Positions 10,475 to 60,223 of a stretch of DNA of 64,000 bases are shown here, one piece after another. This DNA comes from Candidatus Cloacimonadales bacterium (lineage in GTDB: Bacteria > Cloacimonadota > Cloacimonadia > Cloacimonadales > JAFGVF01), in the NCBI GenBank assembly GCA_963667035.1, contig OY762964.1:572664-636663 (forward strand), given 5' to 3'. Under the pieces are notes generated by a model that worked only from the letters and a program-made list of their open reading frames with translations, was not told the origin of the DNA and ran no database searches. Made by a program: the position numbers and the translations under genes. The first letter of the stretch is position 1. Each line of letters starts with the position of its first letter.

Positions 10475-10660
10475 TCAAAGTTTATCAATCAACATCTGTT
10501 TTTGAGCTTTAGCTTTTTTCTCAGAATCAAACTTATAGGATAATATTTTGTTATCTTTCGTTACTACATCAAAAACATAAAGCCATCCTGTGTGATAAAA
10601 GACTTCATATATCTCTGAGACATTGACAATTTTTCCTATATCTATGTTTTCAATCTTCAT
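10475..10660 (-). CDS. small hypothetical protein (61 aa), translationally coupled to the upstream transporter
   Basis: Its ATG overlaps the TGA of the EamA-like gene (ATGA overlap at 10657-10660). No recognisable motif. Confidence 0.35.
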   Translation of the reverse strand: MKIENIDIGKIVNVSEIYEVFYHTGWLYVFDVVTKDNKILSYKFDSEKKAKAQKQMLIDKL

Positions 10661-23529: not shown

Positions 23530-23703
23530 ATGAATGGGCTATTGATGCATAAATAGAACTCTTCTCACAATAGAAACATATTCAAATCATTATTCATGCA
23601 AGTAAGATAACAAAGAATAATAGTTAAAAGTAAAAACTTTAATTGACTTAATTAGTAATCTTTCATATCTTTGATATTAATCAATGGAGGATAACTATTT
23701 ATT

Positions 23704-27277: not shown

Positions 27278-27293
27278 AATAAATAGTTATCAT

Positions 27294-34967: not shown

Positions 34968-35384
34968 TCAGTCTATTTGATTACCATAAATATACCATCT
35001 TCCACCTTCTTTATGAAGGTAAGATAGATTTCCAAAAGTCAAGGGCTCTTGGTATATCTCTTCAGATTCGCCTGTAAATGTTACTATAAAGCTTACTTCT
35101 GCGAAGTTATCTCCAACACTGTTTATTTCCAAGTTATCGAAAGTGAGTTGAGAATAGTTTTCTCTTTTATCTCTCCACCAGTCTTCTTCAGTCCAGATTG
35201 TTCTGCCGTTATGCATAAAATCATCTGAGTATTTATCATAGATATCGTCCAACTCATACAGTAAGAAATCATAACTAATCTGGTTATAGAATTCTTTGAT
35301 ATTATAGTTGTCTGCTTCTTTTGGCTTTGATACATCGCATCCTGCGATTGATAATATGACTAATAATATGAGGATGTATTTCAT
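34968..35384 (-). CDS. small lipoprotein of unknown function
   Basis: MKYILILLVILSIAGC lipobox. Its ATG overlaps the TGA of the upstream rlmD-like gene (ATGA overlap). Confidence 0.5.
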   Translation of the reverse strand: MKYILILLVILSIAGCDVSKPKEADNYNIKEFYNQISYDFLLYELDDIYDKYSDDFMHNGRTIWTEEDWWRDKRENYSQLTFDNLEINSVGDNFAEVSFIVTFTGESEEIYQEPLTFGNLSYLHKEGGRWYIYGNQID

Positions 35385-36706
35385 TTTCTTTCCAATACTA
35401 TTATGTTTTCTATATGCCAAGTATATGGGAACATATCAAATGGTTGAATATCTTTTATTATGTATCCTTCTTCAAGAAATTGCTTTAAATCTCTTACTTG
35501 AGTTGATGGATTACAACTGATGTATATAATGTTTTTAACTCCCAGACCTGATGTAGCTGATATTATGGACTTAGTCATTCCTTTTCTGGGTGGGTCGAAA
35601 ATAATTGTATCCGGGGTGGTTTTTTTGAATATCTCAGGGAGGACAGATTCTACATCTCCACAGTAATAATGGCAATTGGACATGTTATTTCTTTCTGCAT
35701 TCTCTTTTGCATCTTTTACTGCTTCTTCAACTGATTCAATACCAATAATCTCTTTGCATAGATCACTTAATGCAATACCAATGCTTCCGGTACCGCAATA
35801 TGCATCAATTACTACAGAATCTTTGGTAAGATATTCAGAGACATACCTAAGCATTGCTTCTGCTTGAGGAGTGTTTACTTGGAAAAATGATTGATAGTTA
35901 ATTCTGAATGTTTTACCGCAGAGTATATCGTACAAGTATGGCACACCGTATAGAATTTTCTCTTGCTCCCCCAGAATCCTGTTACCGTTTGTAGGATTAA
36001 TATTCTGTATTATCCCCTTTACTTGAGGGAATTCATCTGTTAGACGCTTTACCAGTTGCTTTGTGAAAGGTAGTTTAGAGGATTTAGTAACTAGTATGAT
36101 AAGCAATTCTTCGGTAACTTCTGAATATCGGATTCCAACATGCCTTAACAGACCACTCTGCTTCTTTTCATCATAAATCTTTACTTTTGCAGAGATAATG
36201 TAATCTTTAATCACATCCATTATTCGTTTATATAGGGGAGGGTGAAGTAAACAATCTTCGTGCTCAATGACATCATGACTTTGATTGGCAAACATCCCTA
36301 TCAATGGAGAGTCTGTTGTTCCTCCAACAGGCATGAAGCTCTTGTTGCGATAATATCTTTCCTGAGGAGAAGGTGAAACCGATTTCACATGAAAGTCTAT
36401 ATCTCTGAATAATTCTCTGATAATGGTTGTTTTATATTCTATCTGTTTAGCGTATTCAAGGTGAGACCAATTACAACCGCCGCATTTAGAAAATGCTGTG
36501 CATTCAGGTTCAATATAATCCGGAGAATGTGATACATACTTGTTAATCTCAGCAAAAAGAGATCTCTTCTTTGTGTACTTTACCTTGACATCAACTATGT
36601 CTCCGGGAAGTGCAGAAGGGACAAAAACGCTTTGTCCCTCCCAAAATCCGAGACCATAGCCACCGAATACCGGCTTTTCTATCTTTAAACTTTTAATGTT
36701 TTTCAT
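35381..36706 (-). CDS. 23S rRNA (uracil-C5)-methyltransferase RlmD/RumA family
   Basis: N-terminal TRAM domain, a 4-Cys Fe-S cluster (C…CGGC…C), SAM-binding motif DAYCGTGSIG, and an FDPPRKG motif with a catalytic Cys near the C-terminus. Confidence 0.8.
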   Translation of the reverse strand: MKNIKSLKIEKPVFGGYGLGFWEGQSVFVPSALPGDIVDVKVKYTKKRSLFAEINKYVSHSPDYIEPECTAFSKCGGCNWSHLEYAKQIEYKTTIIRELFRDIDFHVKSVSPSPQERYYRNKSFMPVGGTTDSPLIGMFANQSHDVIEHEDCLLHPPLYKRIMDVIKDYIISAKVKIYDEKKQSGLLRHVGIRYSEVTEELLIILVTKSSKLPFTKQLVKRLTDEFPQVKGIIQNINPTNGNRILGEQEKILYGVPYLYDILCGKTFRINYQSFFQVNTPQAEAMLRYVSEYLTKDSVVIDAYCGTGSIGIALSDLCKEIIGIESVEEAVKDAKENAERNNMSNCHYYCGDVESVLPEIFKKTTPDTIIFDPPRKGMTKSIISATSGLGVKNIIYISCNPSTQVRDLKQFLEEGYIIKDIQPFDMFPYTWHIENIIVLERK

Positions 36707-38396: not shown

Positions 38397-40514
38397 ATGA
38401 AAAAGATTGTTTTGTTCTTAATCAGTATCTATCTTATTATACCTGTATTTTCTATCTATCATAAGATTGGAGAATATGAGCACCCAAGCAATTTCTCCTA
38501 TCTAGCTGTTTCCAATGATAGAGGGTATCTGTCATGCGGTAATGATAGTCTTGTAGTATTAGATGTATCCATTCCTGAGAATCCTCAATTTCGATCAGTA
38601 TATGATACCGGAATAATCATACATGAATTATGCTTGATTGATACTTTATTGTTCATTGGATCGCATGGTTCCGGAGTTCAGATTCTTAATGTGTCTGATT
38701 CCCAGAACCCTGTATTACTCAGTGAATATGTAACATCCGCATATATACGATCAATTAATGTTGTCGGAAATATCGCTTATTTATGTACAATTATGAATGG
38801 TATTGAGATAGTCGATGTTTCAGATGTTTACAATCCACAGCTAATTAGTAATTATAATAATCTTATTGATGCATATTCGATAAAAATAGTAGGGGATATT
38901 GCTTATGTTGCTAACGGTATTCATGGATTAACAGTACTGGATATTTCAGAACCACAAGTTCCGCAACTTGTTAGAACTTATCAGACAGATCAATCCTTAC
39001 ACTATGTAGATGTTGAAGGTGATTTGATGTTTCTCGGTATGCTTTCTATCGGACTGGAAGTATTGAATATTACAGATATAAACAATATTCAACAATTGGA
39101 TAGATATCAGATATCACAGATAATCTTTCTTGATGTTCAGGGAGGGTTATGTCATATTGGAGACAGGGAAAAGGGGTTGTTGGTAATTGATTATTCAACA
39201 CCGGATAATCTAGAGTTAGGTGGTATTTATAACAGTGCAAGAGATAAGAAATCAATTTGTATCTATGATTATTGCGCATACTTGGTAGATGATAGATCTG
39301 ACTTAGATATTATAGATATATCAGAACCGGATATTAATATTCAGAGAAGCAGTTTCTCCGAGTCTGTATCGGTTAATATAGTTAAATCAATAAATAACGC
39401 CACATTCGTTGGAGATGATATCGGAATAAAAGTTTATGATCTCGCTGATATCAATAATCCTATACTACTAAACTCAGTTGAAGTGCCTGAAGGTGTAAGA
39501 GACTTTTTTATTGATGGTAACATTATTTATTTGGCATCACCTCGGAGTGTCTATACATTGAATATTTCTAATTTACAGAATTTGCAGTTAGGCGGTTTTT
39601 ATCATAATGGTGGTTACGGTGAGATAATATCAATAATCTATTCGGATAGTTTGATTTATTATTCTACGACTCATAACGGAATTCGAGTTCTTGATGCAAC
39701 TAATCCACTATCATTGCAATCAATCTGCTCTCATTTCAACAATACCCTTATAAATGATATGCAGATTTCAGGAGATATAGTGAAAGCTGCATGCGGTTGG
39801 ACAGGGTTAGTTACTTTCGATGTATCTAATCCACCTATACCTAATCAGGTTTGTCAGTTAGATATTACCGATTATGCTAAGAAGATTGTTCAAAATTCTC
39901 AAGTAGTTTACATCGCAACAGGCAAGAACGGTTTAAAAGTCATTGATACTTCAAACATGTCAGATTGTTATTGTTGTGAAACTATATTGCCAAGAGAAAC
40001 AAGTAGTATTGATGATTGTTTTATCTATAACAACTGCCTGATTATTTGTGATAGTAACTGGAATGAAATCAGTATATATGATATCAGTAATCCACTACAA
40101 CCACGATTAGTTGATTCTTTTCAATGGAATTTACATGTAAATAATATAGATGTCGAGGATGATATACTGTTCTTAGCCAATGGTTCGAATGGTGTTAGTA
40201 CTCTTGAATCGGTTTTTCTAACAAACAATCACGAGGAGATTCAAGAGATACAGAAGTTAATATCATTAAGTAATTTTCCCAATCCCTTCAATCCTGAAAC
40301 AACAATATCATTTCAGTTAACCAAAAGTTCTTATGTAACTCTAAAAGTATACAATATCAAAGGTGAGTTAATAGAAACACTGATTTCAGGAAATGTCCTC
40401 GCCGGTAGCCATAGCTATGAATGGAAACCTGAGAATGTAGCAAGTGGAGTATACTTCTGTAGATTATCTGATGGTAAGAAGACAGTCACTCAAAAGCTAA
40501 TATTGTTAAAATAG
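38397..40514 (+). CDS. secreted LVIVD-repeat beta-propeller protein with a T9SS C-terminal sorting domain
   Basis: Signal peptide. Repeated LVIVD-type motifs (LVVLDVS, VQILNVS, IEIVDVS, LTVLDIS, LEVLNIT, LLVIDYS). C-terminal NFPNPFNPETTISFQL…KLILLK Por-secretion CTD. Confidence 0.7.
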   Translation: MKKIVLFLISIYLIIPVFSIYHKIGEYEHPSNFSYLAVSNDRGYLSCGNDSLVVLDVSIPENPQFRSVYDTGIIIHELCLIDTLLFIGSHGSGVQILNVSDSQNPVLLSEYVTSAYIRSINVVGNIAYLCTIMNGIEIVDVSDVYNPQLISNYNNLIDAYSIKIVGDIAYVANGIHGLTVLDISEPQVPQLVRTYQTDQSLHYVDVEGDLMFLGMLSIGLEVLNITDINNIQQLDRYQISQIIFLDVQGGLCHIGDREKGLLVIDYSTPDNLELGGIYNSARDKKSICIYDYCAYLVDDRSDLDIIDISEPDINIQRSSFSESVSVNIVKSINNATFVGDDIGIKVYDLADINNPILLNSVEVPEGVRDFFIDGNIIYLASPRSVYTLNISNLQNLQLGGFYHNGGYGEIISIIYSDSLIYYSTTHNGIRVLDATNPLSLQSICSHFNNTLINDMQISGDIVKAACGWTGLVTFDVSNPPIPNQVCQLDITDYAKKIVQNSQVVYIATGKNGLKVIDTSNMSDCYCCETILPRETSSIDDCFIYNNCLIICDSNWNEISIYDISNPLQPRLVDSFQWNLHVNNIDVEDDILFLANGSNGVSTLESVFLTNNHEEIQEIQKLISLSNFPNPFNPETTISFQLTKSSYVTLKVYNIKGELIETLISGNVLAGSHSYEWKPENVASGVYFCRLSDGKKTVTQKLILLK

Positions 40515-40554
40515 TGCTAACGGGTTTAACATGATTGTCATCATTTTAGATCCT

Positions 40555-40690
40555 AACTGTTTTCTCACATTCCATACTCAACCAACGCACTGCGTTTGCA
40601 CTGTGCAGCCACTATTGAGGCACTGTGCACGCACTGAAACACCGGGTTGGCAGTGCCTTCACAGTGGGATCACAGTGCGAAAAGTGTGCT
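40555..40690. repeat. conserved structured intergenic repeat, copy A (CACTG/CAGTG-rich)
   Basis: About 80 percent identical to the reverse complement of 50591-50717. Shared blocks are aactgttttctcacatt, accaacgcactg, tttgcactgtgcag, cactgaaacaccgggttg and cacagtgg. It contains internally complementary CACTGTG/CACAGTG arms. Confidence 0.7.
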
Positions 40691-40914
40691 TTAGTAATTC
40701 GTTTAAACAATGTGAAGTAATAATTAATAGTACGATTCATCTTTATAAACGAATCAATTACTTGCTTCAAAAGGATAGAATGATGATAATTCAGCTTTGT
40801 TTATTTTTATTGATAATTATGATAGCACTATGAATACCGCATTTAATCGCTAATCAGAACTGTATAATTCAGATATTTAGAAAGGAAAAACAAAAGAGAT
40901 ATTGACAAGAATCA

Positions 40915-40940
40915 GTATACAAACATTCATGTTTGTATAC
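40915..40940. promoter_or_regulatory. perfect 12-bp-arm palindrome (GTATACAAACAT-TC-ATGTTTGTATAC): putative TetR operator overlapping the tetR promoter
   Basis: Palindrome read from the sequence. A TTGACA lies 8 bp upstream. It sits 13 bp before the tetR ATG/RBS. Confidence 0.6.
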
Positions 40941-40952
40941 AAAGAGGAAGAT

Positions 40953-41594
40953 ATGAGAAGAACTAAAAGTGACGCAGAACAAACAAAGCATGACCTGGTT
41001 ATGGCAGCACTTAAGCTATTCAGCGAAAATGGTTATTCAGCTACTAATTTAGCTGATATTGCCAAGCGTGCCGGAACAACCAGAGGTGCAATCTATTGGC
41101 ACTTTGAAAACAAGGATCATTTATTCTCATATCTTATTGAACAAGGCATGAACTATCTATGCAATTATATTGAATATTCATATCAACAGGAAGGCACCTT
41201 CCTAGACAGAACCAAAAGATTATTCGTAAGTTTTAGAGATTTGGATTCCTATGAACTTGCTTTGTTTAATTTCATTAAAGATAATTTCATTCAAGTAAGG
41301 AAAATACCATCCGTTCAGAGTATTTTTGAAACTTTTTACCAAAGAGCGATTAAAGCATTGAACATCGTTGAAAAGGAAGTTTTAATAGCACAGAAGCATG
41401 GTGAGCTTGATGAGAATATTGATTCGGGAGCTTTGAGTGTTTATATTTTGAACTTTCTTGCATTGATAGGAATCAAGAGCAGTCCTGAGATTGATTTGCG
41501 CAATTTAGTGTTGGGAAGAGAAGTTAAGGATTTTTCAGAGGATTTAATAGATTTTGCATTTAAAGGACTAAATAGTATAAAGAAGAAATCGTAA
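40953..41594 (+). CDS. TetR/AcrR-family transcriptional regulator
   Basis: N-terminal HTH typical of TetR (AALKLFSENGYSATNLADIAKRAGTTRGAIYWHFENKDHLF). ATG at 40953 with an AAAGAGGAAG RBS. Located upstream of the RND pump. Confidence 0.8.
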   Translation: MRRTKSDAEQTKHDLVMAALKLFSENGYSATNLADIAKRAGTTRGAIYWHFENKDHLFSYLIEQGMNYLCNYIEYSYQQEGTFLDRTKRLFVSFRDLDSYELALFNFIKDNFIQVRKIPSVQSIFETFYQRAIKALNIVEKEVLIAQKHGELDENIDSGALSVYILNFLALIGIKSSPEIDLRNLVLGREVKDFSEDLIDFAFKGLNSIKKKS

Positions 41595-41630
41595 AAGAAA
41601 TCAGACTTTTGCGACTATTTTTTTATCCCT

Positions 41631-41654
41631 ATACAAACATTCGTGTATGTATAT
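41631..41654. promoter_or_regulatory. second, slightly degenerate copy of the TetR-type operator palindrome, upstream of the RND pump gene
   Basis: TATACAAACATTCGTGTATGTATA. The left arm is identical to the operator at 40915 and the right arm differs at 2 positions. It lies 30 bp before the pump ATG. Confidence 0.55.
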
Positions 41655-41683
41655 AATGAGAATATTTGATAAATGGAGGAAAG

Positions 41684-44600
41684 ATGTTTCTATCGAAAAT
41701 TGCGATAGATAGACCTGTGACGACCTGGGTATTTGTTATTGTGCTTGTACTCATGGGATTACTAGCTTATCAATCAATTCCGCTAAGCTTAGCACCGGAA
41801 ACTAATCTACCCGTGGTTTCTGTACAGATTGTTTATCCTGGTGCAGGTGCGGAAGAGATTCAAAACAATATTACGAAGAAAGTTGAAGATGAAGTTGCAA
41901 CAATCAGTGATTTGGATTACTTCAATTCCTATGTTATGGAAGGAGCTTCCGTAACTACTTTGATTTTTAAGACTTCTAAAGACGAGAATGTAGCTGTTAG
42001 AGAAGTTAAGGATAAAATTGAGCTAATTGCAAACGATTTACCTGACGATGCTTATGAACCTGAGATTTCCAAGTTCGATATAGCATCTGAACCAATTATG
42101 ACTTATTCTATGATAACTTCTTTATCTCCTGCTGATGCAAATGATTTTGCTGAGAACAATCTTGAACCAAGACTCTCAAGAATTACAGGTGTAGCGGAAA
42201 TAGATCTCACCGGTGCTAATGAGAGAGAAATACAGGTAGTTCTAAATAGGAAACAGCTTAGTAAATACGGATTATCTCCATTGCAGCTAGTAAGCTTTCT
42301 GCAAATGAATAATATGAACCTTCCAGGCGGTAGTATCAGAAAAAACGGACATGAATACAGTGTAAAATATGAAGGTGAGTTTAAATCACTGAACGATATA
42401 GCTGATATTCAAGTTCCTACACCTAAAGGAAACAGACATTTAAGTGAACTTGCCGAAATCAGAGAGACAAGTAAGAAACCTCAGGACTTAAGTAGATTTC
42501 ACGATTCACAGAGTTCATTGGAAGGTGAAAACCTTACAGTTATCAATATGGGTGTCATCAAGCTTAACTCAGCTAATGTTGTGAAAGTGGCCGAACAGGT
42601 GAGAGCTGATATGGAACAGCTTAAAAAAGAGTTACCTGATAACATTGATATTATTCTGGCAGAGGATAGTTCAACTTTCGTTAAGAACTCCGTTAGAGAT
42701 ACACTCTCATCAATATACATGGGTATTATATTCACAGCCCTTGTGCTATTATTATTCTTACACGATTTGAGAAGTACATTCGTTGTTGCTATCTCAATGC
42801 CGGTAGTGTTAATAGCAACATTCATGCTCGTGAATGGAGCAGGATTCACTCTCAATATCATGTCATTAATGGCTATGAGTGTATCGGTGGGAACGCTAGT
42901 TACGAACTCGGTTGTGATTCTGGAGAATATTGACAGATACATTAAGATGGGAATGAATAAAATTGAAGCTTCAAATAAAGGGACATCAGAGATTGCAGTT
43001 GCCGTTATAGCTTCAACAGTTACTAACATCGTTGTGTTTGTGCCAATTGCTACAATGCAATCAATGGTTGGATCTATCTTTAAAGAATTCGGGCTTACAG
43101 TTGTGTTTATAATGGTACTTTCAATCATAATCAGTTTTACTCTTACACCAATGCTTGCATCTCAAATCATTAAAGTGAAGGGTAAGAAATCTAAGAACAG
43201 TTTTGGAAAGAGATTTGAAGATGGATTTGAAAAACTTGCTGTGTCATACAAGAACTCGGTTAAATGGGTTGTTTCTTCACCTGCTAAGAGATTCTCGGTT
43301 ATTATCTTCTCTATATTGATTCTTGTTCTTGTTGCAGTAACACTAGGAAAAGGGATAGGAACCGAATTCGTACCTTATGTTGATGATGGTGTTATTCAAG
43401 TTACTGCTGAATTCCCTGCTTATTATGATTTGGATAAAACATCCGATAAGTTCATGGAAATGGAAAAAATAATAACTTCTCATGATGAAGTAGATAAAGT
43501 TATCGTTAATATTGGTTCTCTTGACATGACTGAAGGTGTATATGTCGGAAAGATTCGTATCTTCTTGAAGAAGGATAGAGAACAAACCACAACAAGTATA
43601 GCTAGAATAATGACTCAAGAACTCTCTGCTATTCCTGACGGATTGATTAAAGTTGCGGAAGTATCTCAATTTGAGACGCCTAGTAAACCTATTCAATTTG
43701 ATATAATGGGAACTGATCTTGAAGAAGTTAGGAAGCTTACTCAGCAAGTATTTGAAATTGCAGGAAATGTAGAAGGAGCACTTAACGTGGATACTGATAT
43801 TCGTGCAGGTAAGCCGGAATACAAGTTTGTTCCCGATAGAAAGAAACTTGCTGATGCAGGTGTAAATGTTTATGACATTGCAATGACTCTTAGGACCACA
43901 ATTGAGGGTGTTGAATCTTCAACTTACCGCATTAATGGTGAAGAGTATGATATCAGAGTATTGCTTGATAATCAGAATATAAATGATGAAGATAAGCTAA
44001 GAGATATTCCTATCCTTACATCCCTCGGAGAGAAACATCTTTCTGATTTGGGAAAAGTGGAACTCACCGAAGCTCCTACAATGATTTATAGAAAGAATAA
44101 GCTTATCATGCATTCAGTAACCGCTAGTATTGGTAGTAGAACACTTGGTGATATCGTGGGAGATATACAAAAAGGTATAGATGAAAAGATTACTATACCA
44201 AGCGAGTTCAAGATTGAGCAAGGTGGCGACGCTAAGCTTCAAAACGAAGCTATGGTTGATTTATCTCGTGCTTTCTTGATTGCTCTTGTACTTACTTTCC
44301 TTCTTATTGTGGCAATCTTGGAATCATGGAGTCAAGGTGTTATTATCATGACAACTATCCCTCTTTCGTTGATAGGTGTTATAACAGGACTCTCCATGTT
44401 TGGCGTTGCCTTAAACATCTTTGCGATGATGGCGGTGGTTATGCTAATCGGTATTGTTGTGAATAACGCTATTATCATTCTGGACTACACTAACCATCTT
44501 CACAGAAGCGGACTTGATAAAGTATCTGCTATCCTTGAAGCATCACATACAAAGCTGAGAGCTATTGTTATGGCTACATTAGCATCAGTACTTGGTATGT

Positions 44601-44761
44601 TACCTCTTGCTCTGGGATTGGGTGCCGGTGCAGAGTTGCGTCAAGGTGTTGGTGTTGTATCAATGGGAGGTTTGTTAACTTCAGCGATACTCACATTGTA
44701 TGTGATACCTGTAATATATGTTCAATTCACTAAAAAGAAAATAGTTAATACGGAGGTCTGA
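41684..44761 (+). CDS. RND-family multidrug efflux transporter (AcrB/HAE1-like)
   Basis: About 1030 aa with 12 TM in a 1+5/1+5 arrangement around two large periplasmic loops. The N-terminal MFLSKIAIDRPVTTWVF is typical of AcrB. ATG at 41684 follows a GGAGGAAAG RBS. Confidence 0.85.
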   Translation: MFLSKIAIDRPVTTWVFVIVLVLMGLLAYQSIPLSLAPETNLPVVSVQIVYPGAGAEEIQNNITKKVEDEVATISDLDYFNSYVMEGASVTTLIFKTSKDENVAVREVKDKIELIANDLPDDAYEPEISKFDIASEPIMTYSMITSLSPADANDFAENNLEPRLSRITGVAEIDLTGANEREIQVVLNRKQLSKYGLSPLQLVSFLQMNNMNLPGGSIRKNGHEYSVKYEGEFKSLNDIADIQVPTPKGNRHLSELAEIRETSKKPQDLSRFHDSQSSLEGENLTVINMGVIKLNSANVVKVAEQVRADMEQLKKELPDNIDIILAEDSSTFVKNSVRDTLSSIYMGIIFTALVLLLFLHDLRSTFVVAISMPVVLIATFMLVNGAGFTLNIMSLMAMSVSVGTLVTNSVVILENIDRYIKMGMNKIEASNKGTSEIAVAVIASTVTNIVVFVPIATMQSMVGSIFKEFGLTVVFIMVLSIIISFTLTPMLASQIIKVKGKKSKNSFGKRFEDGFEKLAVSYKNSVKWVVSSPAKRFSVIIFSILILVLVAVTLGKGIGTEFVPYVDDGVIQVTAEFPAYYDLDKTSDKFMEMEKIITSHDEVDKVIVNIGSLDMTEGVYVGKIRIFLKKDREQTTTSIARIMTQELSAIPDGLIKVAEVSQFETPSKPIQFDIMGTDLEEVRKLTQQVFEIAGNVEGALNVDTDIRAGKPEYKFVPDRKKLADAGVNVYDIAMTLRTTIEGVESSTYRINGEEYDIRVLLDNQNINDEDKLRDIPILTSLGEKHLSDLGKVELTEAPTMIYRKNKLIMHSVTASIGSRTLGDIVGDIQKGIDEKITIPSEFKIEQGGDAKLQNEAMVDLSRAFLIALVLTFLLIVAILESWSQGVIIMTTIPLSLIGVITGLSMFGVALNIFAMMAVVMLIGIVVNNAIIILDYTNHLHRSGLDKVSAILEASHTKLRAIVMATLASVLGMLPLALGLGAGAELRQGVGVVSMGGLLTSAILTLYVIPVIYVQFTKKKIVNTEV

Positions 44762-45138
44762 TGTATACCCTACAAGAAACTCTAAATTTTCATGCTTCCC
44801 ATCAGATTAAGATTAATGATGAACACGAAAGCATTATGCATACACATCAGTGGTATGTTAGAATTACGGTTGGATTTACTGAACTTGATAAATACGGTAT
44901 AAGTATGGAGTTTAACTACTTTCAGAATCAAGTTAGAGATATAATAAATCATTTCGATAACAGTCTCTTGAATGACCTTAAAGATTTTGAACATGAACAG
45001 CCTACTGTTGAGAACGTAGCTAGAATCATGTTTGAGAAGTTTGCTCATGATATAAACACAGATAACAAGAAGATTCATAAAGTGGAACTGTGGGTTAATC
45101 CAAGCAGAGTCATTTCATATAATGGTCAGGGGGCATAA
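44761..45138 (+). CDS. 6-pyruvoyl-tetrahydropterin synthase (QueD/PTPS)-fold protein embedded in the efflux operon
   Basis: 125 aa. The FHASHQ…E…MHTHQW pattern parallels the PTPS zinc-binding His triad (F.AAH…E…HGH), but the catalytic Cys is absent. It overlaps the RND and TolC-like genes with ATGA-type junctions. Confidence 0.45.
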   Translation: MYTLQETLNFHASHQIKINDEHESIMHTHQWYVRITVGFTELDKYGISMEFNYFQNQVRDIINHFDNSLLNDLKDFEHEQPTVENVARIMFEKFAHDINTDNKKIHKVELWVNPSRVISYNGQGA

Positions 45139-46421
45139 TGTTTAGTAGAATTAAATTAATCGCTGTCATTATCTTAGTGTCCGTTAGTATGGGATTGTTT
45201 AGTGAAACTATCACCTTAGATGATGCAATCAATATTGCTTTAAAGCAAAGTGATGATATTCTAACGGCAAAAGAGGACTTAAAAAACTCAAAGTATCGAT
45301 TCCGTGAAGCATTAGCAAATGCTTTCCCTAAGATTGATGCAAGCTTAACAGCAGTTCATAAAGCTTATACATCCAATGATCTTTATGATCAACAGGAAGA
45401 TAAAGCACTTGATGGTGAGATAAGCATTGTGCAGCCTCTTTGGGTTGGTGGAAAAGTCGGTACAGGCATTAAAATTGCCAAAGTTTATAGTAAGCTTTCA
45501 AAAGAATCTCTAGAAATGCAGAAAGCAAAAACTTGTGTGGCAATAACCCAAAGTTTCAATGATGTTCTATTAGCTAAAGAAGCTTATGAAGTTATCAAAG
45601 CAACAAAAACAGACGCTCTTGAAAATCTGAGAGTGGCTGAAACAATGTATGCTCAAGAATTGATTTCCGAGTATGAAGTGATTAAAGCACGAGTCGGAGT
45701 TAAATCTATTGAACCGATGCTCGTAGAATACAATAATAATTACAGACTTGCTTTGAATAAGTTCAAGACAGACTTAGGTATGGAATTGGATGCAGATTTA
45801 GTTCTTGATGGTAAACTGGAGTATAATCCTGTTCTTCCTGATACAACTAATTATCTTCAAAGAGTACTTGATAACAGAAGAGAACTATCAATCCTAAAGA
45901 AATCAAACAAGATGTATAGACAGAGCAAGAGAATCGCCTACGGTGATTTGTTACCTACTATAGCCGCTGTGGGCTCCTTCACTTCTCAGGCAAGTCAGGA
46001 TGAATTCTCTGATATGTTCAAAGATGACTTCAATATACGCAAGTTCAATGTTGGTATCAATATTAGCATTCCTTTATTCCATGGAGACACTTATGCTAAG
46101 ATTCAACAAGCTAAAAGTAGTATTAGAAAGTCTGATATTGAGTTAAGAAAGGCAAAGAGATTACTTCAACTTGAAGCCGAGTCAACATACCGTAACCTGT
46201 TACAAGCATCAGAGCAAATCAGCTTACAGGAAGATGTTGTAAATGAGAGTCAAAAAGCTTTGGATATTGCAAATGTCAGATTTAGTAATGGCATAGGCTC
46301 ACAAATAGAAGTTATTGATGCTCAAACGAATTTGCGTAACAGCCGTCTACAATTGCTTTCAGCAATTCATAATTTCACTAATTCAGTCATAGAATTCAAG
46401 TATGCAAGCGGATTATTATAA
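45138..46421 (+). CDS. TolC-family outer-membrane efflux protein
   Basis: Signal peptide and two tandem OEP repeats with a coiled-coil heptad pattern. About 430 aa. Operon position matches an RND system. Confidence 0.7.
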   Translation: MFSRIKLIAVIILVSVSMGLFSETITLDDAINIALKQSDDILTAKEDLKNSKYRFREALANAFPKIDASLTAVHKAYTSNDLYDQQEDKALDGEISIVQPLWVGGKVGTGIKIAKVYSKLSKESLEMQKAKTCVAITQSFNDVLLAKEAYEVIKATKTDALENLRVAETMYAQELISEYEVIKARVGVKSIEPMLVEYNNNYRLALNKFKTDLGMELDADLVLDGKLEYNPVLPDTTNYLQRVLDNRRELSILKKSNKMYRQSKRIAYGDLLPTIAAVGSFTSQASQDEFSDMFKDDFNIRKFNVGINISIPLFHGDTYAKIQQAKSSIRKSDIELRKAKRLLQLEAESTYRNLLQASEQISLQEDVVNESQKALDIANVRFSNGIGSQIEVIDAQTNLRNSRLQLLSAIHNFTNSVIEFKYASGLL

Positions 46422-46431
46422 GGAGAACATC

Positions 46432-47481
46432 ATGAAAAGAATATATATTATAGCGATAGCATTAATGCTCGTATTATTAGTTGGCTGTTCATCTGAAGAG
46501 GTACAGCAACCTAAATCAATTGCAGATATTCAGGAAGCAGAAGGTATTCCTGTTAAGATAGATAAAGTTAAAACAAGTAAACTGGAAAGATGGGAAGAGT
46601 TCCAGTCAACACTTGAAGGAGCCAAAGAGTCTGAAGTGTTTGGACTTCTTAGTGATAATCTATTCCGTATTAACGTTAGTCTTGGAGACTATGTTGAAGC
46701 AGGTGAAGTAATTGCCGAGTACTCAACTGAATCTCCAACAGCAAAGTATACACAAGCTTTTTTAGCTAAAGATATAGCAGAGAAAACTTACAATAGAATG
46801 CTTACAGTATACAATGCCGGTGGTATATCAAGACAAGATCTTGATAATGTTAAGACACAATACGATGTCGCTATTCAGGATTTTAGAGCAGTATCTAAGA
46901 TGGTAAAAGTACAAGCTCCTATTTCGGGTATAGTTTCTGAAATAAATTATGATGAAGGTGATTTTTGTTCTCCTTCATCTCCATTAGCTAAAATAGTTGA
47001 TTCATCAGTACTCAAAGCAACTATAACAGTAGATGAAACAAAGATAAACAACTTCAAAAAGAATCTACCTGCTGTTATCAGTTGGGATGCCATTGGTGGC
47101 AAAACTTTTAAAGGTAAAGTAACAGCTATCTCATTATCAGCTAATCCTCAAAAGCGTGGCTTTGCAGTGGATGTAATGATTAATAATCATAATAACGAGC
47201 TAAAAGCAGGTGCTTTTGTAACAGTTAAAGTAAACACAAAGACAAATGCGGAAGCTATAATTATTAACAGACTCTCAGTAGTTACCGAAAACAATAAGGA
47301 TTACGTTTACGTAGTAAAAAATGACAAAGCTGTAAAACAAAAAGTAGTTACCGGGGACGTTGTTTCTGATAAAATAGAGATAATCTCAGGACTAACACTT
47401 AACGACTCATACGTTGTTGAAGGTCAGAGCAGAGTCAAAGACGGAATTAAAGTAAATATTGTGAAAACAAATCAATCATAA
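46432..47481 (+). CDS. efflux RND periplasmic adaptor (membrane-fusion protein), lipoprotein
   Basis: MKRIYIIAIALMLVLLVGCS lipobox. Biotinyl/lipoyl-like and beta-barrel MFP domains (…PISGIVSEINYDEGDF…). Confidence 0.7.
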   Translation: MKRIYIIAIALMLVLLVGCSSEEVQQPKSIADIQEAEGIPVKIDKVKTSKLERWEEFQSTLEGAKESEVFGLLSDNLFRINVSLGDYVEAGEVIAEYSTESPTAKYTQAFLAKDIAEKTYNRMLTVYNAGGISRQDLDNVKTQYDVAIQDFRAVSKMVKVQAPISGIVSEINYDEGDFCSPSSPLAKIVDSSVLKATITVDETKINNFKKNLPAVISWDAIGGKTFKGKVTAISLSANPQKRGFAVDVMINNHNNELKAGAFVTVKVNTKTNAEAIIINRLSVVTENNKDYVYVVKNDKAVKQKVVTGDVVSDKIEIISGLTLNDSYVVEGQSRVKDGIKVNIVKTNQS

Positions 47482-47541
47482 TCACTCCAAGGGTTAGCAT
47501 GTAGTATAATCCCCAATGGCTAACCCCCTCTCAAGTAGCCT

Positions 47542-47576
47542 AGAGAGTGCGTAGCCCTTACGCACTCTCTTTTTTA
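47542..47576 (+). terminator. rho-independent terminator
   Basis: AGAGAGTGCGTA-gccctt-ACGCACTCTCT hairpin plus TTTTTTAT. Confidence 0.75.
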
Positions 47577-47669
47577 TGGATTAATTTAACACTTATATGA
47601 ATTCTTCCAAGATTTTTGTTGCTAAAGTATTTGCTTATGCTAAACAATGAGTAACTATTAGGAGGTGTA

Positions 47670-48605
47670 ATGAGTAAGAAAGAAATTGAGTGGTCTGATA
47701 GTAAGTATAAGAAGATGTTGATTGAGCAGCGAAGAGATTTATGGAATAAAGATACAATTGAAATGCTCTCAAAGTGGTTTGGTTTACATTCAGGTATGAA
47801 AGTAGCGGATATTGGTTGTGGATTAGGTTATTTAGGTTTAACATTCTGGGAGTATTTCGGTGATGCAGGTTCATATACCGGGGTTGATAAATCACAAAAC
47901 CTTGTAACCGAGGCTAAGGATATGGCAAAAGAGTGGAGTCAGAATGGTAATGTAAACTTTATTCATGGTGATGTGTATAACTTACCATTAGATAATGACT
48001 CATACGATGTTGTGATGTGTCAGACTCTTCTCATGCATCTTGAGTTTCCTGATAAGGCTTTACAGGAGATGAAAAGAATTCTCAAGTCGGGAGGATTGAT
48101 TGTTTGTATAGAACCTGATAATCTATGCAATTCAACAAGACCGGTAGTCTCATCTCTTGTTGATGAATCTCTGGAAGATTTACTGCTACGTACTAAGATT
48201 TATTATTATAGATTTAAGGGGTATAAAAAGCTTGGTTATGGAGATTTTACAATTGGTTCAAAGTTACCTAAACTTCTCTCAGAGGCCGGATTTAGTAATA
48301 TAGACGCAAGAGCCGGTGACAAAATAAGGTTTACAATACCACCTTATGGTGAGGATATGCATACAAAAGCTAAAGAAGCTGATAACAAAAGTGTAGATAA
48401 ATCAAGTGAAAAAGATTGGAAGCAATCAACCAGAAGAGATGTACTAGCAGGGGGAGGTACAGAATACCTACTCCGAAAGTACTTCAAGATGAATGAGAAG
48501 TATAGGGAGATGAGTAAAGCGAGAGTTCTTAAGCAAATAGAAGAAGATGAATATTATAGTTTTAGTTTTCATAATCTCTATGTTGCTATAGGAAGAAAAG
48601 AATAG
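47670..48605 (+). CDS. class I SAM-dependent methyltransferase
   Basis: Motif I VADIGCGLGYLG plus acidic motif II/III spacing (HGDVYNLP…DVVMCQ). Confidence 0.7.
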   Translation: MSKKEIEWSDSKYKKMLIEQRRDLWNKDTIEMLSKWFGLHSGMKVADIGCGLGYLGLTFWEYFGDAGSYTGVDKSQNLVTEAKDMAKEWSQNGNVNFIHGDVYNLPLDNDSYDVVMCQTLLMHLEFPDKALQEMKRILKSGGLIVCIEPDNLCNSTRPVVSSLVDESLEDLLLRTKIYYYRFKGYKKLGYGDFTIGSKLPKLLSEAGFSNIDARAGDKIRFTIPPYGEDMHTKAKEADNKSVDKSSEKDWKQSTRRDVLAGGGTEYLLRKYFKMNEKYREMSKARVLKQIEEDEYYSFSFHNLYVAIGRKE

Positions 48606-48625
48606 GAATTATATACAAATAAACT

Positions 48626-48648
48626 AGCCCGAAGTAGTGCTTCGGGCT
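48626..48648. terminator. bidirectional terminator between convergent genes
   Basis: AGCCCGAAG-tagtg-CTTCGGGCT, flanked by A/T runs on both sides. Confidence 0.7.
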
Positions 48649-48664
48649 TATTCATAATAAAACT

Positions 48665-49144
48665 TTATAGTAGTTCCGTCATCTGACCGGTTTCTACATT
48701 AACTTTGATTAACTCAACTCCTGCTTCTTTCATCATTTCTTCAGCAAGCTGATCATTATAAGGCTCAGCAATATAAACCTTCTTTATTTCCGAGTTTATA
48801 ATAATTTTAGCACAGATACTACAGGGTTGATTTGTACAGTAAAGCTCAGCACCTTTGATTGAATGGCCATTTACTGCCGCTTGAATAATGGCGTTTTGCT
48901 CAGCATGAACTCCACGACACATTTCATGTCTTTGACCGGAAGGTATGTTCATTTGTTGTCGGAGACAACCTGTTTGGGAACAGTGTCTAACACCTTTGGG
49001 AGATCCATTGTATCCCGTTGATAGTATTTGGTTGTTTCTAACTATTACAGCTCCGACTTTACGTCTGAGGCAAGTTGACCGTTCGGAAGCTAAGTAAGCC
49101 ATCTTCATAAAATACTGTTGCCAATATGGACGATTATCTGACAT
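48665..49144 (-). CDS. dCMP deaminase (ComEB/cytidine-deoxycytidylate deaminase family)
   Basis: Zinc-binding HAEQNAI and PCSICAKII motifs. 159 aa. Confidence 0.8.
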
Positions 49145-49225
49145 CTTAATCCCCTTTTTTATGTTGCGATAAGCATAACCTTATTTATAACTTGTCAAGT
49201 GGCATTTGTCGTAAAATCTGGAAAC

Positions 49226-50470
49226 ATGAATATGAATATAAAACCAATAACCAAACTACATGGAACTTTAAAGCTTTCAGGCTCTAAGTCAATTTTACAA
49301 AGAATACTGTTAATATCTCTATTCTTGAAAGATGAAATGAGTGTTACTAACTGGAGTGATTCAGAAGATGTAAGAGAAATGGCAAAGGCGATAGGTGTTG
49401 AAGCGATAGAAAATCAGGTAACTTTAAATGACACTTGTCTCCGTAGCCGTTTCCATATAGAGGAATCAGCAACAGCACTCCGTTTTCTGATGGTTTATGC
49501 TTCTCTTCAAGCCGGGAAAGAGACGATAATAAGTATAGGGGAGAGGTTATCAGAAAGACCGCATGATGAACTCATAAAAACTATGATAACTTTAGGAGCA
49601 ACTATTGCAAAAAACAATCGAGATATTGTTGTTTTAGGAGCCAATCCTAAAGTAGAAAGCTTGGTTATAGATGCCGGTATTAGTAGCCAATATATCTCAG
49701 CTCTACTGTTATGTGCTCCATGCTTTGAAAAGGGTCTAACAATACAAATTAATTCTCCTATTGTTTCTAAGAATTATATTGATCTCACCATAGCATTAAT
49801 GGATGAGTTCGGTATTCAGATAGAGGAGAAAGAGAGCACATACATCATTCCTGCCCAAAGCAGATATAATGCTAAATCAGAGTTTACTTGTGAAGCCGAT
49901 TTATCTTCAGCAGTTTATCCATTGAGCTTAGGTTTGTTCTCGGAAGAGGGGATAGGAGTAACCCCGATTTCGAATCACACTAAACAACCCGATTTTGTGT
50001 TCTGGAAGTTGCTTTCTGATGCTGGGGCTGATATAAAATTGCATTATACGGAGAAAACAGAAGAGACCGTTCTTATTGCTAAGAAATCAGATTATAAAGG
50101 GTTTAACTTTAATGCGAGAAGAGCTCCGGACCTTGTACCTGTATTATCGATATTAGCCTTGTTTGCTACTACCGAGACTGTTATTTATAATGTAGGGTAT
50201 TTGAAACATAAAGAATCGGACAGAGTGACCGGAATCATTGAGAATCTGAAACTAATAGGAGCGGAGATTAACTTGGATGAAGATATGTTAAAGATTAATC
50301 CGCTTACTGTCGAACCAAATGAGATTGAGTTGGATTCCTACAACGACCATAGACTTGCTATGTCTTTCTATATTTTAAATCAGTTATTTCCGCAAGTCAG
50401 TGTTAATAGCATGAGCTCTGTTAAAAAATCCTACTCGAATTTTGTAAGTGACATTAACAGTTTAAGATAG
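49226..50470 (+). CDS. aroA: 3-phosphoshikimate 1-carboxyvinyltransferase (EPSP synthase)
   Basis: LSGSKSILQR (vs LPGSKSVSNR), ERP, SSQYISALLL (vs SSQFLTALLM), KESDR (vs KETDR) and YNDHRLAMSF (vs YNDHRMAMCF). Start chosen at the ATG at 49226 so the N-terminal length matches AroA. Confidence 0.7.
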   Translation: MNMNIKPITKLHGTLKLSGSKSILQRILLISLFLKDEMSVTNWSDSEDVREMAKAIGVEAIENQVTLNDTCLRSRFHIEESATALRFLMVYASLQAGKETIISIGERLSERPHDELIKTMITLGATIAKNNRDIVVLGANPKVESLVIDAGISSQYISALLLCAPCFEKGLTIQINSPIVSKNYIDLTIALMDEFGIQIEEKESTYIIPAQSRYNAKSEFTCEADLSSAVYPLSLGLFSEEGIGVTPISNHTKQPDFVFWKLLSDAGADIKLHYTEKTEETVLIAKKSDYKGFNFNARRAPDLVPVLSILALFATTETVIYNVGYLKHKESDRVTGIIENLKLIGAEINLDEDMLKINPLTVEPNEIELDSYNDHRLAMSFYILNQLFPQVSVNSMSSVKKSYSNFVSDINSLR

Positions 50471-50590
50471 GAATATAGAAGGTTTTAGAGTACAAGGCAC
50501 TAGTTTAAGTGCCTTGTAGATTAAATTCAATTTTTATTTAAAGATCATATTCTGCTCTTCTTCATTGCATCCATCAATAATGCCGTAGTT

Positions 50591-50717
50591 TCCCACTGTT
50601 TTTCCACTGTGCGGGTACTGTCAACCCGGTGTTTCAGTGGGTGGATAGTGCATTAGCAGTGCCTGCACAGTGCAAAAACAGTGCGTTGGTAGGACCTGCA
50701 ATGTGAGAAAACAGTTG
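50591..50717. repeat. conserved structured intergenic repeat, copy B (inverted relative to copy A)
   Basis: Its reverse complement aligns block-by-block with 40555-40690 (see copy A). It lies between the convergent aroA and carbamate kinase genes. Confidence 0.7.
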
Positions 50718-50918
50718 ATGATAAGTATTTGATGTAAGTTACTGAAAATGCACTGAGTAAGTAGATTGTTTGAAATGGAAATAACTCTCTGCAAGTCAAA
50801 ACTCATTTTTCTGATATATACAGTATAATTTGTAAATAAGGTGAATGTCAAAGTAGTTTTATGAATGAATAAAAGGCAACTCGAATAAGTTGCCTTTTAT
50901 AGAAACTGTATGGTTAAA

Positions 50919-58408: not shown

Positions 58409-59289
58409 TCTTTAGCTTCATCTCCTGCAATAGATTTATAGGCTGTGCAATATTTATCATAAGTTTTTGCTATTATATCTTCAGGTAATTCCGGTGCCGG
58501 AGGATTCTTGTCCCAACCGGTTGCAGAGATATAATCTCTGATATATTGTTTGTCGTAACTCTTTGGTGTCTTCCCAACTTCATACTCTTCAATATCCCAA
58601 AAGCGAGAGGAATCAGGTGTTAGCATTTCATCAATAAGGTATATCTGACCTTCTATTGTACCGAATTCAAATTTAGTATCTGCTAGAATAATTCCTTTCT
58701 GCTTTAAAAAGTCAGCACCAAATTTATACAGCTCTATTGACTTTTCTCTTAACTCCTCGGCAATATTCTTATCAACTCTGGTAAGCATTTCTGCAAAGCT
58801 GATATTAATATCATGGCCTTCTTCAGCTTTTGTGGATGGAGTAAAGAGAGGTTTCGGGAATCTTTGAGATTCTAACATGTCTTCGGCAATCAGAGTATTG
58901 TTGACTGTACCCATACTTTGATATTCTTTCCAAGCTGAGCCTGTAATATACCCTCTAACTATGCATTCAAAAGGAATAACACGAGTCTTCTTTACAAGCA
59001 TACTTCGATCTTCAAGTTCATTTTTGAAAGTATGGAATTCTTCCGGATACTCTTCTACAATATCAGTAATAAAATGATTAGGCATAATATCTTTAGTTGC
59101 TTTAAAAAAATGTACTGATATCTGGTTTAAGATTTTACCTTTATTTTTTATCTCATTAGGGAATACAACGTCAAATGCTGAGATTCTGTCTGATGTAACT
59201 ACAAGGAGTTTATCACCTAAATCATAAATATCTCTCACTTTACCACGATAATGCTTTTTTACTATATCAAGTTCATCAATCTTCATCAC
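58393..59289 (-). CDS. purC: phosphoribosylaminoimidazole-succinocarboxamide synthase (SAICAR synthetase)
   Basis: YRGKVRDIYDLGDKLLVVTSDRISAFD N-terminal signature of PurC. Confidence 0.9.
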   Translation of the reverse strand: MMKIDELDIVKKHYRGKVRDIYDLGDKLLVVTSDRISAFDVVFPNEIKNKGKILNQISVHFFKATKDIMPNHFITDIVEEYPEEFHTFKNELEDRSMLVKKTRVIPFECIVRGYITGSAWKEYQSMGTVNNTLIAEDMLESQRFPKPLFTPSTKAEEGHDINISFAEMLTRVDKNIAEELREKSIELYKFGADFLKQKGIILADTKFEFGTIEGQIYLIDEMLTPDSSRFWDIEEYEVGKTPKSYDKQYIRDYISATGWDKNPPAPELPEDIIAKTYDKYCTAYKSIAGDEAKEWGTK

Positions 59290-60223
59290 TATTCTCCTCA
59301 GCTTTATAGTTTAAATTAGTTAACACTTTCTTTATATTACTCTGATATGTACCCATAACCAAATCTTTATTAGTGTTCACCAGCTCAAAGAATACAATCC
59401 ATAACTCGTCAAGAGTATCTTTATTCACAGCTAAGAACTCATTATCTCTATATTCAATATCAGTATAAACAGGGAATTCATCAGTGCCCTTTGAGTTCTC
59501 AACACTTTTTACCATACCTTTCATAATCTCTATTTTGGTACTTTTCCCTTCGATAACTGTATTGATGTATCTTGCTGTATAATAGAATATCATATATTGA
59601 TAAAATCTTGCTAGCAAATCAATTTGCTTTCGCATAATCTCGGAATCTTCGAACTTGATTTCATTGAACAAATCGGTTCGTTTTTTCTCTAGAATTGATA
59701 AGAAAGTGCTTCCTGAACGTAAGTATGTTTCAATTAGAAGGTTTCTTGAATAGCTCTTTCCATCTTTCATTTGGAAGAGTTGTTTAAAAGTTTCAATTAA
59801 ATCAGCTAGAAAGAATCTATCTCTAAATGGTCCAATATAGAATAAGTCACCTTGAGTATCCTCTTTGATTTGTACTTGAACTTCTCCTTCAAAATCCAAA
59901 GCAAGGTAACAATATTCATCGTATGGTTTGATTTGAGATTGAAGTTGGGGTGAGAGTTTCTTTATCAACTTCTTTTGCCAAATTAGAGCATTAAATGCGT
60001 CAGGTAGCTCTTCCCAGTATATGTTGGTAGCAGTATCTTTTAAAGCTATAAATCTAGGGTCATCTTGCATTTTATCAAGATAAAATCTTACTCTTCCTTG
60101 AAGATTTCCGGCTAACGACACATACAATGCATTAATTGCATTGGAGAAGTAGAATACTCCGGGTTTTTTAGGCAATTTATTAATTTCTTCCTGCATATCA
60201 GGCTTTATAATTATCTGATTCAT
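59276..60223 (-). CDS. hypothetical protein
   Basis: 315-aa ORF with operon-like overlaps on both sides. No recognisable motif. Confidence 0.4.
   Translation of the reverse strand: MNQIIIKPDMQEEINKLPKKPGVFYFSNAINALYVSLAGNLQGRVRFYLDKMQDDPRFIALKDTATNIYWEELPDAFNALIWQKKLIKKLSPQLQSQIKPYDEYCYLALDFEGEVQVQIKEDTQGDLFYIGPFRDRFFLADLIETFKQLFQMKDGKSYSRNLLIETYLRSGSTFLSILEKKRTDLFNEIKFEDSEIMRKQIDLLARFYQYMIFYYTARYINTVIEGKSTKIEIMKGMVKSVENSKGTDEFPVYTDIEYRDNEFLAVNKDTLDELWIVFFELVNTNKDLVMGTYQSNIKKVLTNLNYKAEENSDED

Follow-up and report, generated by a model that had tools for sequence, protein, structure and literature searches.

The subject of this work is a pair of inverted repeats, here called copies A and B, which stand some 10 kb apart in a 64,000-nt stretch of DNA (contig OY762964.1 of assembly GCA_963667035.1, positions 572,664 to 636,663; hereafter the window, numbered from its first letter). 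Between the copies lies a block of genes whose content had been read correctly from the sequence in the original prediction: Pfam searches returned a TetR regulator, an RND pump, a 6-pyruvoyl-tetrahydropterin-synthase-like (PTPS-like) protein, an OEP/TolC-like outer-membrane factor, an HlyD-type membrane fusion protein (MFP), a methyltransferase, dCMP deaminase and EPSP synthase (AroA). The start of copy A coincides with the stop codon of a co-oriented gene for an LVIVD-repeat protein of the type IX secretion system (38397-40514), while copy B faces the 3' end of aroA and is situated ~160 nt downstream of a co-oriented amino-acid-kinase gene; the proposal that both copies lie just 3' of stop codons is to be corrected accordingly. 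As regards the host, the best matches of AroA in relatives were 61% identical and then 46% identical (Candidatus Zophobacter, Cloacimonadota), and those of the RND pump 78%, 56% and then ~48% identical, the last being proteins named Candidatus Delongbacteria. The organism is an uncultured FCB-group bacterium, with Candidatus Delongbacteria and Cloacimonadota as its closest named relatives.

The repeat pair and its anatomy

When a repeat finder was run on the window, the inverted arms 40555-40682 and 50589-50716 were returned as 128 nt, 81% complementary and free of gaps, the runner-up inverted pair of the 64 kb measuring 44 nt at 70%. All five of the long identical blocks that had been proposed for the two copies were seen in the pairwise alignment (aactgttttctcacatt, accaacgcactg, tttgcactgtgcag, cactgaaacaccgggttg and cacagtgg), the longest identical run between A and B being 18 nt, and the CACTG-N14-CAGTG hairpin and the CACTGTG/CACAGTG arms are likewise present in the copies. 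The similarity is above chance, since the 18-mer CACTGAAACACCGGGTTG of the loop occurs exactly twice in the window and in none of 100 shuffles, and an nhmmer profile of the copy pair recovered both members with E = 4e-49 and 7e-45 and found no third match in the window. Moreover, the density of CACTG/CAGTG reaches 6-7 sites per 150 nt at copies A and B only, with no more than 3 elsewhere in the window. Only the extent had been underestimated: the inverted similarity does cover about 130 nt, but the repeated unit reaches further 5', to ~188 nt per copy. In fact, with a profile built from four copies (A, B and the two of a relative described below), nhmmer aligned 40504-40724 for copy A (E = 3e-61) and 50764-50551 for copy B (E = 4e-60). 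The coordinates are collected in Table 1.

Table 1. Copies of the repeat and the signals that accompany copy B (window positions, except where a contig of the relative is named)
Feature	Position	Strand	Remarks
Copy A, full element (~188 nt)	~40513..40700	+	leader, block AACTGTTTTCTCACATT at 40555, core, tail
Copy A, core (102 nt, 56% GC)	40582..40683	+	phased units; covariance model R1, 104 bits
Copy B, full element (~188 nt)	~50571..50758	-	leader begins at ACTCAGTGCATTTTCAGTAACTTA
Copy B, core (102 nt, 52% GC)	50588..50689	-	in register with the three other copies; covariance model R1, 112 bits
Terminator hairpin AAAAGGCAACT...AGTTGCCTTTT	50872..50900		adjoins the amino-acid-kinase gene; homologous to the hairpin of the L034 spacer
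Second hairpin GTACAAGGCAC...GTGCCTTGTA with T-rich tail	50490..50519	+	serves aroA
Sigma-70-like promoter match TTGACA-18-TATACT (11/12)	50822..50851	-	~60 nt upstream of copy B, pointing into it
Copy in relative	L034 5400-5595	+	between oxaloacetate-decarboxylase beta gene and LexA-like gene
Copy in relative	L038 18271-18465	-	between thioredoxin and RNase PH genes

The repeat, for which we use our own label of CACTG-11 element, is composed of a leader of ~70 nt, a GC-rich core of 102 nt and a tail of ~15 nt, and its length varies between 188 and 196 nt across copies. The core consists of one pentamer used eight times, five times in direct orientation (CACTG) and three times inverted (CAGTG), with an exact 11-nt period: written in rows of 11 nt, it shows (G/C)CACTG plus five variable bases in each of the first five rows, then one row that starts with C(C/T)GGGT and three rows with CAGTG, the direct and inverted sets being 13 nt apart. 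The core also holds a CAC(C/T)GGGT block; in copy A, the block CACCGGGT stands between the direct and the inverted units, and two CAGUGGGA motifs are conserved on the 3' side of the core. The GC content of the core (52-57%) is far above that of the window (35%) and of the immediate flanks (26-28%). The leader comprises a CAGTGC...TTTCA..AA.TTA block and then a genome-specific block, which in the window genome is the 17-nt AACTGTTTTCTCACATT, identical in A and B, and which is a different sequence in the relative. In copy A the leader (40513-40554) is weakly conserved, while the start of the copy B leader, ACTCAGTGCATTTTCAGTAACTTA, matches the leader of the relative's copies.

The four 102-nt cores can be aligned with zero indels, and their invariant columns are concentrated in the pentamer units (37 of 40, compared with 28 of 62 elsewhere; Fisher p = 6e-7). 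Thus, the alternation of conserved and variable blocks, from which recognition or structure had been predicted, was confirmed in a sharper form than that originally stated, namely a strict 11-nt phase. In the RNAalifold consensus, the first three direct units are matched with the three inverted ones (1 with inverted 3, 2 with inverted 2, 3 with inverted 1), a small apical ACCC/GGGT helix being formed in addition. Pairing extends to 93.5% of the cells, a share that falls to 21-52% if the partners are shifted by 1-3 columns. Covariation is weak, as the observed score was reached in 19 of 500 shuffles, and four sequences from two lineages constitute weak evidence for an RNA. Units 4 and 5 find no partner in that fold, although their sequence and 11-nt phase are both maintained; because of this, base pairing alone is insufficient to account for the conservation, which sequence-specific recognition explains. 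The pentamers are probably sites of cooperative recognition by a protein.

The element can form hairpins on both strands. The minimum free energies of the strand and its opposite were -52.1/-52.0 kcal/mol for copy A, -45.2/-55.8 for copy B, -69.5/-69.7 for the L034 copy and -67.9/-71.9 for the L038 copy, that is, between -45 and -72 kcal/mol with z-scores of -2.5 to -8, neither strand being consistently better. The individual minimum-energy folds use different registers of the repeated units, and the core of copy A gives a long imperfect hairpin, predicted on either strand. In addition, G-U and A-C cells are balanced (7 vs 5) and carry no strand signal. Since the unpaired units are kept, the two strands fold equally well and the G-U and A-C cells are balanced, a purely RNA-structural constraint is argued against.

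In regard to coding potential, whichever reading frame is taken, at least two of the four copies contain stops. The element is accordingly non-coding, given that no frame is open in all four, that a period of 11 nt is unfit for codons and that the overlapping open reading frames (ORFs) lack Pfam matches. The ORFs in question, 40531-40833 and 50621-50851, do overlap the window copies and share one open frame over most of the core, which is what might be put forward in favour of a short protein-coding gene; nevertheless, the shared frame is interrupted by 2-3 stops in the copies of the relative, and the differences cluster in the 5-6-nt spacers instead of falling in third codon positions. A chance resemblance or a decaying segmental duplication fares no better in view of E-values of e-45 to e-68 and of related copies in another genome, and practically no credence is given to any of these three explanations. 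Rfam searches of the whole window at gathering thresholds left the element unmatched and found only a cobalamin riboswitch (13713-13894), while permissive searches of copy A and of L034 and L038 gave miRNA-precursor hairpin models only, below threshold at 21-33 bits compared with thresholds of 52-96.

Further copies and the gene block between A and B

Two contigs of ENA assembly ERZ22147072 (L034 and L038), representing the relative, whose AroA is 61% and whose RND pump is 78% identical to that of the window, were fetched through their AroA and RND pump and therefore independently of the element, and were searched together with neighbourhoods of the RND operon from more distant relatives (L039-L042, 63 kb). 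Profile and covariance-model searches of these loci yielded exactly two additional copies, one on each contig of the relative (Table 1), which are 90% identical to each other over 196 nt; L039-L042 held no copy detectable by nhmmer or by the covariance model. The family is thus present in two genomes at non-orthologous positions, each of its four copies in a different intergenic context, and one orthologous site is empty, as detailed below. The tally of four covers 108 kb from the two closest genomes. Because two of the copies came from only 44 kb (L034 plus L038) fetched without regard to the element, a copy number of tens, or dozens, per genome is suggested, a figure which is an extrapolation and not a count. 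The cores of A and B are 82% identical and those of L034 and L038 93%, while identities between genomes amount to 73-80%. This clustering by genome, along with the non-orthologous positions and the empty site, indicates spread or homogenisation within each genome and not the inheritance of fixed loci. Of the possibilities contained in the original prediction, that of a dispersed MITE/REP-like family (miniature inverted-repeat transposable elements and repetitive extragenic palindromes, respectively) is the one borne out, as the relative has single copies at two unrelated intergenic sites.

The sequences upstream of the relative's copies (L034 4893-5400 and L038 18466-18700) contain further small repeat modules. 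One of them is a stem-loop of ~130 nt, whose outer stem (GGTCACCTGTG ... GGTGAC; GGTCACC/GGTGAC) is conserved and whose inner stems are compensated; fragments of the modules recur at L034 18009-18049 and 19787-19848, and the element's leader occurs in solo form (ACACAGTGCCTTTTTCAACAACTTA) in the relative ~150 nt upstream of the element. Such a cluster of modules is reminiscent of the mosaic repeats known from other bacteria.

Searches in more remote sources were negative. BLAST gave no match to the element in plasmids or phages, and on viral contigs a pattern for units 1-2 had no match, whereas a pattern for the 3' units matched a phage coding region only. Four CACTG motifs at an 11-nt period were found at 62 viral loci, none of them with the direct-plus-inverted layout. 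The best of these, L071 2940-3050 (IMG/VR contig 3300000227_000077), contains about 10 tandem copies of GCACTGCGAAT, an 11-nt unit with a GCACTG motif, with no inverted half or other similarity, and is probably unrelated. The 18-mer of the loop gave 17 matches in genome contigs and 16 in metagenome contigs, approximately the number expected by chance, and none of the matches was accompanied by other parts of the element. A full-text search of the literature for heptamers or phased subterminal repeats returned only papers on V(D)J/RAG and on eukaryotic transposons.

The inverted arrangement of A and B, with arms inverted and outer ends (AACTGTTTTCTCACATT) facing outwards, is the one that the ends of a composite transposon would show, or the sites at which an invertible segment of 10 kb, running from tetR-RND to aroA, would recombine, and both had been proposed. 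The relative's genes argue against either. On L034, the genes for dCMP deaminase (-), AroA (+), the amino-acid kinase (-) and a 439-aa protein (-) show the arrangement of the window, in order as well as in orientation; the aroA-kinase spacer there measures 54 nt and lacks the element, compared with 449 nt and copy B in the window. The L034 spacer holds one terminator hairpin only, AAAAAGGCAACTC...GAGTTGCCTTTT (L034 11252-11282), the homologue of the hairpin that adjoins the kinase gene of the window, and the latter represents the site in its ancestral form. The extra DNA of the window, ~400 nt between this hairpin and aroA, comprises the second hairpin, copy B and the promoter-like site. The spacer thus provides a filled and an empty version of one orthologous site, as is looked for in MITEs. 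Given the synteny with L034 and the shared hairpin, the aroA/kinase junction predates copy B and crosses the supposed boundary of the unit, in the same orientation in both genomes. As an observation in its own right, the conservation of this hairpin across genomes whose AroA is only 61% identical is unusual for an intergenic hairpin.

The other end of the block gives no support to a unit either. On L038, the tetR-RND-OEP-MFP-methyltransferase operon occurs in a different neighbourhood, with no element upstream of tetR; L039-L042 also have the RND operon and no element at that place, and all copies in the relative are solo ones. No transposase or invertase in or beside the block emerged from Pfam scans of it and its flanks, the supposed cargo includes housekeeping genes (aroA, dCMP deaminase), and the copies themselves are 188 nt of non-coding DNA. 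Furthermore, the repeats are 81% complementary with a longest identical run of 18 nt, which is short for an inversion driven by RecA. Both proposals were consequently abandoned as very improbable. Copies A and B would instead be independent insertions, inverted and 10 kb apart by coincidence, which define no unit.

Some additional features of the block were recorded. A palindromic operator-like site, TATACAAACATTC(A/G)TG(T/A)TTGTATA, occurs twice, at 40911-40946 in the start of the tetR ORF region and at 41625-41660 just upstream of the RND pump gene, where it overlaps a TATAAT box; the two are probably TetR operators serving autoregulation and control of the pump. The PTPS-like gene (44761-45138, +) lies inside the RND operon, between the pump and the outer-membrane factor, a position which is conserved in L039 (13119-13496) and L041 (13154-13522), the gene being absent in the closest relative, L038.

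Elsewhere in the window, the cobalamin riboswitch mentioned above (RF00174, 107.6 bits, full-length, - strand) stands directly upstream of a gene for a succinyl-CoA-synthetase-like fused ATP-grasp/CoA-ligase (11571-13589) and of an EamA transporter gene (10657-11577), an unusual pair to be under B12 control. A gene for an XerC/D-like tyrosine recombinase (27294-28256, -) with Phage_int_SAM_1 and Phage_integrase domains is located immediately upstream of the gene for a 783-aa P-loop/TPR protein (24926-27277, -), and a 28-nt inverted repeat of 86% (23679-23706 / 27275-27302) links the start regions of the SHMT gene and of this 783-aa gene. Four ORFs of 150-532 aa had no Pfam match at E <= 1e-5, namely 278-1876 (-), 17749-18264 (+), 34968-35420 (-) and 59276-60223 (-). 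For the first of them, L039 has a Pfam-less gene of similar size (514 aa) at the same position by radical-SAM, RNase III and FabF genes, a correspondence of position and size alone.

Transcription signals and the small-RNA alternative

The original prediction had also considered a family of terminator-associated small RNAs (sRNAs), and in this form the proposal stood in part: the dispersed family was found, whereas the sRNA wording was not sustained, there being no conserved promoter or terminator and the strands folding equally well. According to such an explanation, the copies would each give rise, by way of their own promoter or as part of a 3' untranslated region, to a structured RNA of ~150-250 nt, whose repeated CACUG/GGGA motifs would bind or titrate an RNA-binding protein or pair with targets. 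Several properties of the element agree with it, such as the GC-rich core in a genome of low GC content, the very stable folds with two compensatory pairs and a high proportion of pairing cells, and a sequence kept across genomes in which AroA is only 61% identical. Copy A directly adjoins the stop codon of a gene on the same strand, as would a 3'-UTR-derived sRNA, and upstream of copy B stand a terminator and, after it, the near-consensus promoter match of Table 1. Such a match would be expected within 100 nt upstream and on the right strand with a probability of ~0.003 per copy. However, promoter matches of this quality (11/12) are no commoner in the 64 kb than expected by chance (3 observed vs 3.75 expected), and it is only the position of the one at copy B that is suggestive.

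This arrangement is not shared by the rest of the family. No promoter-like site was found upstream of the L034 and L038 copies, and the leader has no conserved -35/-10 elements; a strong terminator stands upstream of the L034 copy, and the L038 copy runs antisense to the genes on either side of it. As for the 3' end, the scan reported no terminator-like match with a U-tract at the window copies. The L038 copy finishes in a 5-bp hairpin followed by GTTTTG, an ending which the window copies do not share, and at the L034 copy an ACAGT-GGGATG-ACTGT hairpin followed by GTTTTGG could be recognised by eye, though the scan reported no such site there; these small hairpins of the relative's copies count in favour of an RNA. 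Against it stand the opposite strand, which folds as well or better, the balance of G-U and A-C cells, the non-syntenic positions and clustering by genome of the copies, and the lack of an Rfam family. All in all, a multicopy sRNA is possible, especially at copy B, but the family as a whole does not support it; although the main rival of the preferred reading, it is held to be doubtful as a general explanation.

Other classes of structured or recombinogenic elements were examined and rejected. A riboswitch or 5'-UTR element does not fit, as two of the four are directed towards the 3' end of the gene that follows, and 6S RNA, retrons and omega-RNA were discarded for want of an Rfam match and of an associated gene. 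The attC sites of integrons have the consensus RYYYAAC ... GTTRRRY at the base of the hairpin, and on inspection the bases of the stem of the element (CAACGCACTG ... CAGTGGGA) do not fit this R''/L''-L'/R' consensus.

Comparison with known systems and biological meaning

The element is regarded, with moderate confidence, as a lineage-specific, non-coding, dispersed intergenic hairpin repeat of ~190 nt, similar to REPs and MITEs. In this reading, the phased CACTG motifs would be recognition sites for a DNA-binding protein acting in trans from a gene at another place of the genome, a transposase or a recombinase being the likeliest candidate; no candidate gene for such a protein was found next to any copy. 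Copies with intact and correctly spaced sites would be propagated, or homogenised, within the genome and would land in intergenic DNA, and the layout resembles what two asymmetric transposon ends might become if collapsed into a miniature element. Where a neighbouring transcript reads through a copy, the hairpin would probably serve as a 3'-end barrier or an attenuator. Recognition by a protein, mobility and its mechanism, and the effect on neighbouring transcripts are what we infer from the sequence.

Not all the observations are in line with this interpretation. Only four copies were retrieved, from two genomes, and they showed neither sharply defined termini nor a target-site duplication, no direct repeat being seen on inspection at the boundaries of any of the four, although the boundaries are fuzzy and this is weak evidence. 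The core corresponds to the inverted arms (units 1-3 against inverted units 1-3), yet ~75 nt of conserved leader lie beyond this palindrome, a feature not expected of a simple MITE with two ends. The identity of 73-80% between genomes, compared with 61% for AroA, could reflect purifying selection on a functional RNA; the two compensatory pairs point the same way, and at copy B the kinase terminator followed by a near-consensus promoter is more in keeping with an independent transcript than with a passive repeat. Moreover, no partner transposase gene was found, and the only recombinase gene of the window is the XerC/D-like one, 13 kb away.

The comparison with known repeats is instructive in this context. 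As with the REPs of gamma-proteobacteria and the mosaics that they form (BIMEs), the CACTG-11 element is non-coding, GC-rich, hairpin-forming and strictly intergenic, often near gene 3' ends; it is also dispersed over non-orthologous sites and homogenised within a genome, and the relative's copies are clustered with hairpin modules in the manner of BIME mosaics. REPs are 20-40 nt long with a conserved 5' tetranucleotide and flank a RAYT (TnpA-REP) gene. By contrast, the element, with ~190 nt, a phased array of eight motifs and an asymmetric leader, is too long for a REP; no RAYT was seen in the DNA available, nor a Y1-transposase domain among the window ORFs scanned. In length (100-200 nt) and in its long imperfect hairpin it is closer to MITEs and modular repeats such as Correia of Neisseria, BOX and RUP of Streptococcus pneumoniae and ERIC/IRU of enterobacteria, which are likewise intergenic, co-transcribable, able to carry promoter-like sequences and present or absent between relatives. 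It differs from them in having no definable terminal inverted repeat with an adjacent target-site duplication and no known parent insertion sequence (IS); to our knowledge, a strict 11-nt phasing of five direct and three inverted 5-nt motifs has not been described in these families. The ends of Mu, Tn7 and the IS21 family, with their subterminal sites for transposase binding, offer another parallel, as a short site recurs there in direct orientation on one side and inverted on the other, in unequal numbers (here 5/3) and at fixed spacing. Their sites are ~20 nt long and flank kilobases of genes, whereas the two sets of the element are 13 nt apart, with no transposase between or beside them and with no terminal TG/CA ends identified.

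The phased array might also be stationary, its eight sites on one helix face nucleating a nucleoid-organising, partition-like or insulator complex. This would agree with the exact 11-nt spacing free of indels in the four copies, with the conservation of the unpaired units to the same degree as the paired ones and with the presence of sites in both orientations, as in arrays bound by ribbon-helix-helix or partition proteins. In fact, parC of plasmid R1, with its 11-bp iterons, and the omega and ParG sites also have a short motif about once per helical turn and in both orientations, a likeness from which cooperative binding to a single DNA face follows. Those arrays are found on plasmids, where they overlap promoters and have the genes for their binding proteins beside them, whereas the element is chromosomal and dispersed, and no candidate binding protein is encoded beside any copy. 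Positions that differ between genomes, the empty orthologous site, the homogenisation within each genome and the long asymmetric leader further reduce the case for a fixed landmark, which is judged improbable.

More broadly, the element might be a functional module and neither passive nor mobile, in which the eight CACTG sites would assemble a dedicated protein on the DNA or on a transcribed RNA hairpin. Examples would be a lineage-specific chromosomal nucleoprotein landmark or a multicopy regulatory or sponge RNA, in which case copy B would be free-standing with its own promoter. The sponge RNAs CsrB and RsmZ have in common with the element a short motif repeated in highly structured non-coding sequence, the two conserved CAGUGGGA motifs being the counterpart here; nevertheless, the element has no conserved promoter or terminator, strand bias or Rfam match, and its motifs are mostly in stems and not in loops. 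A function of this broader kind is considered unlikely, though less so than the stationary array.

The preferred reading of a dispersed REP/MITE-like repeat would add a previously undescribed family from a poorly sampled, uncultured FCB-group lineage. As a practical consequence, the tetR-RND efflux operon, the dCMP deaminase gene and aroA need not be annotated as the cargo of a mobile or invertible unit, and a false lead is thereby removed. Furthermore, the exact 11-nt phasing of a 5-nt motif predicts cooperative protein binding. Should the partner protein prove to be a transposase, a new IS/MITE system would be defined with the help of the element, while if the element is transcribed, it would represent a new sRNA family; either outcome would be of local rather than general importance.

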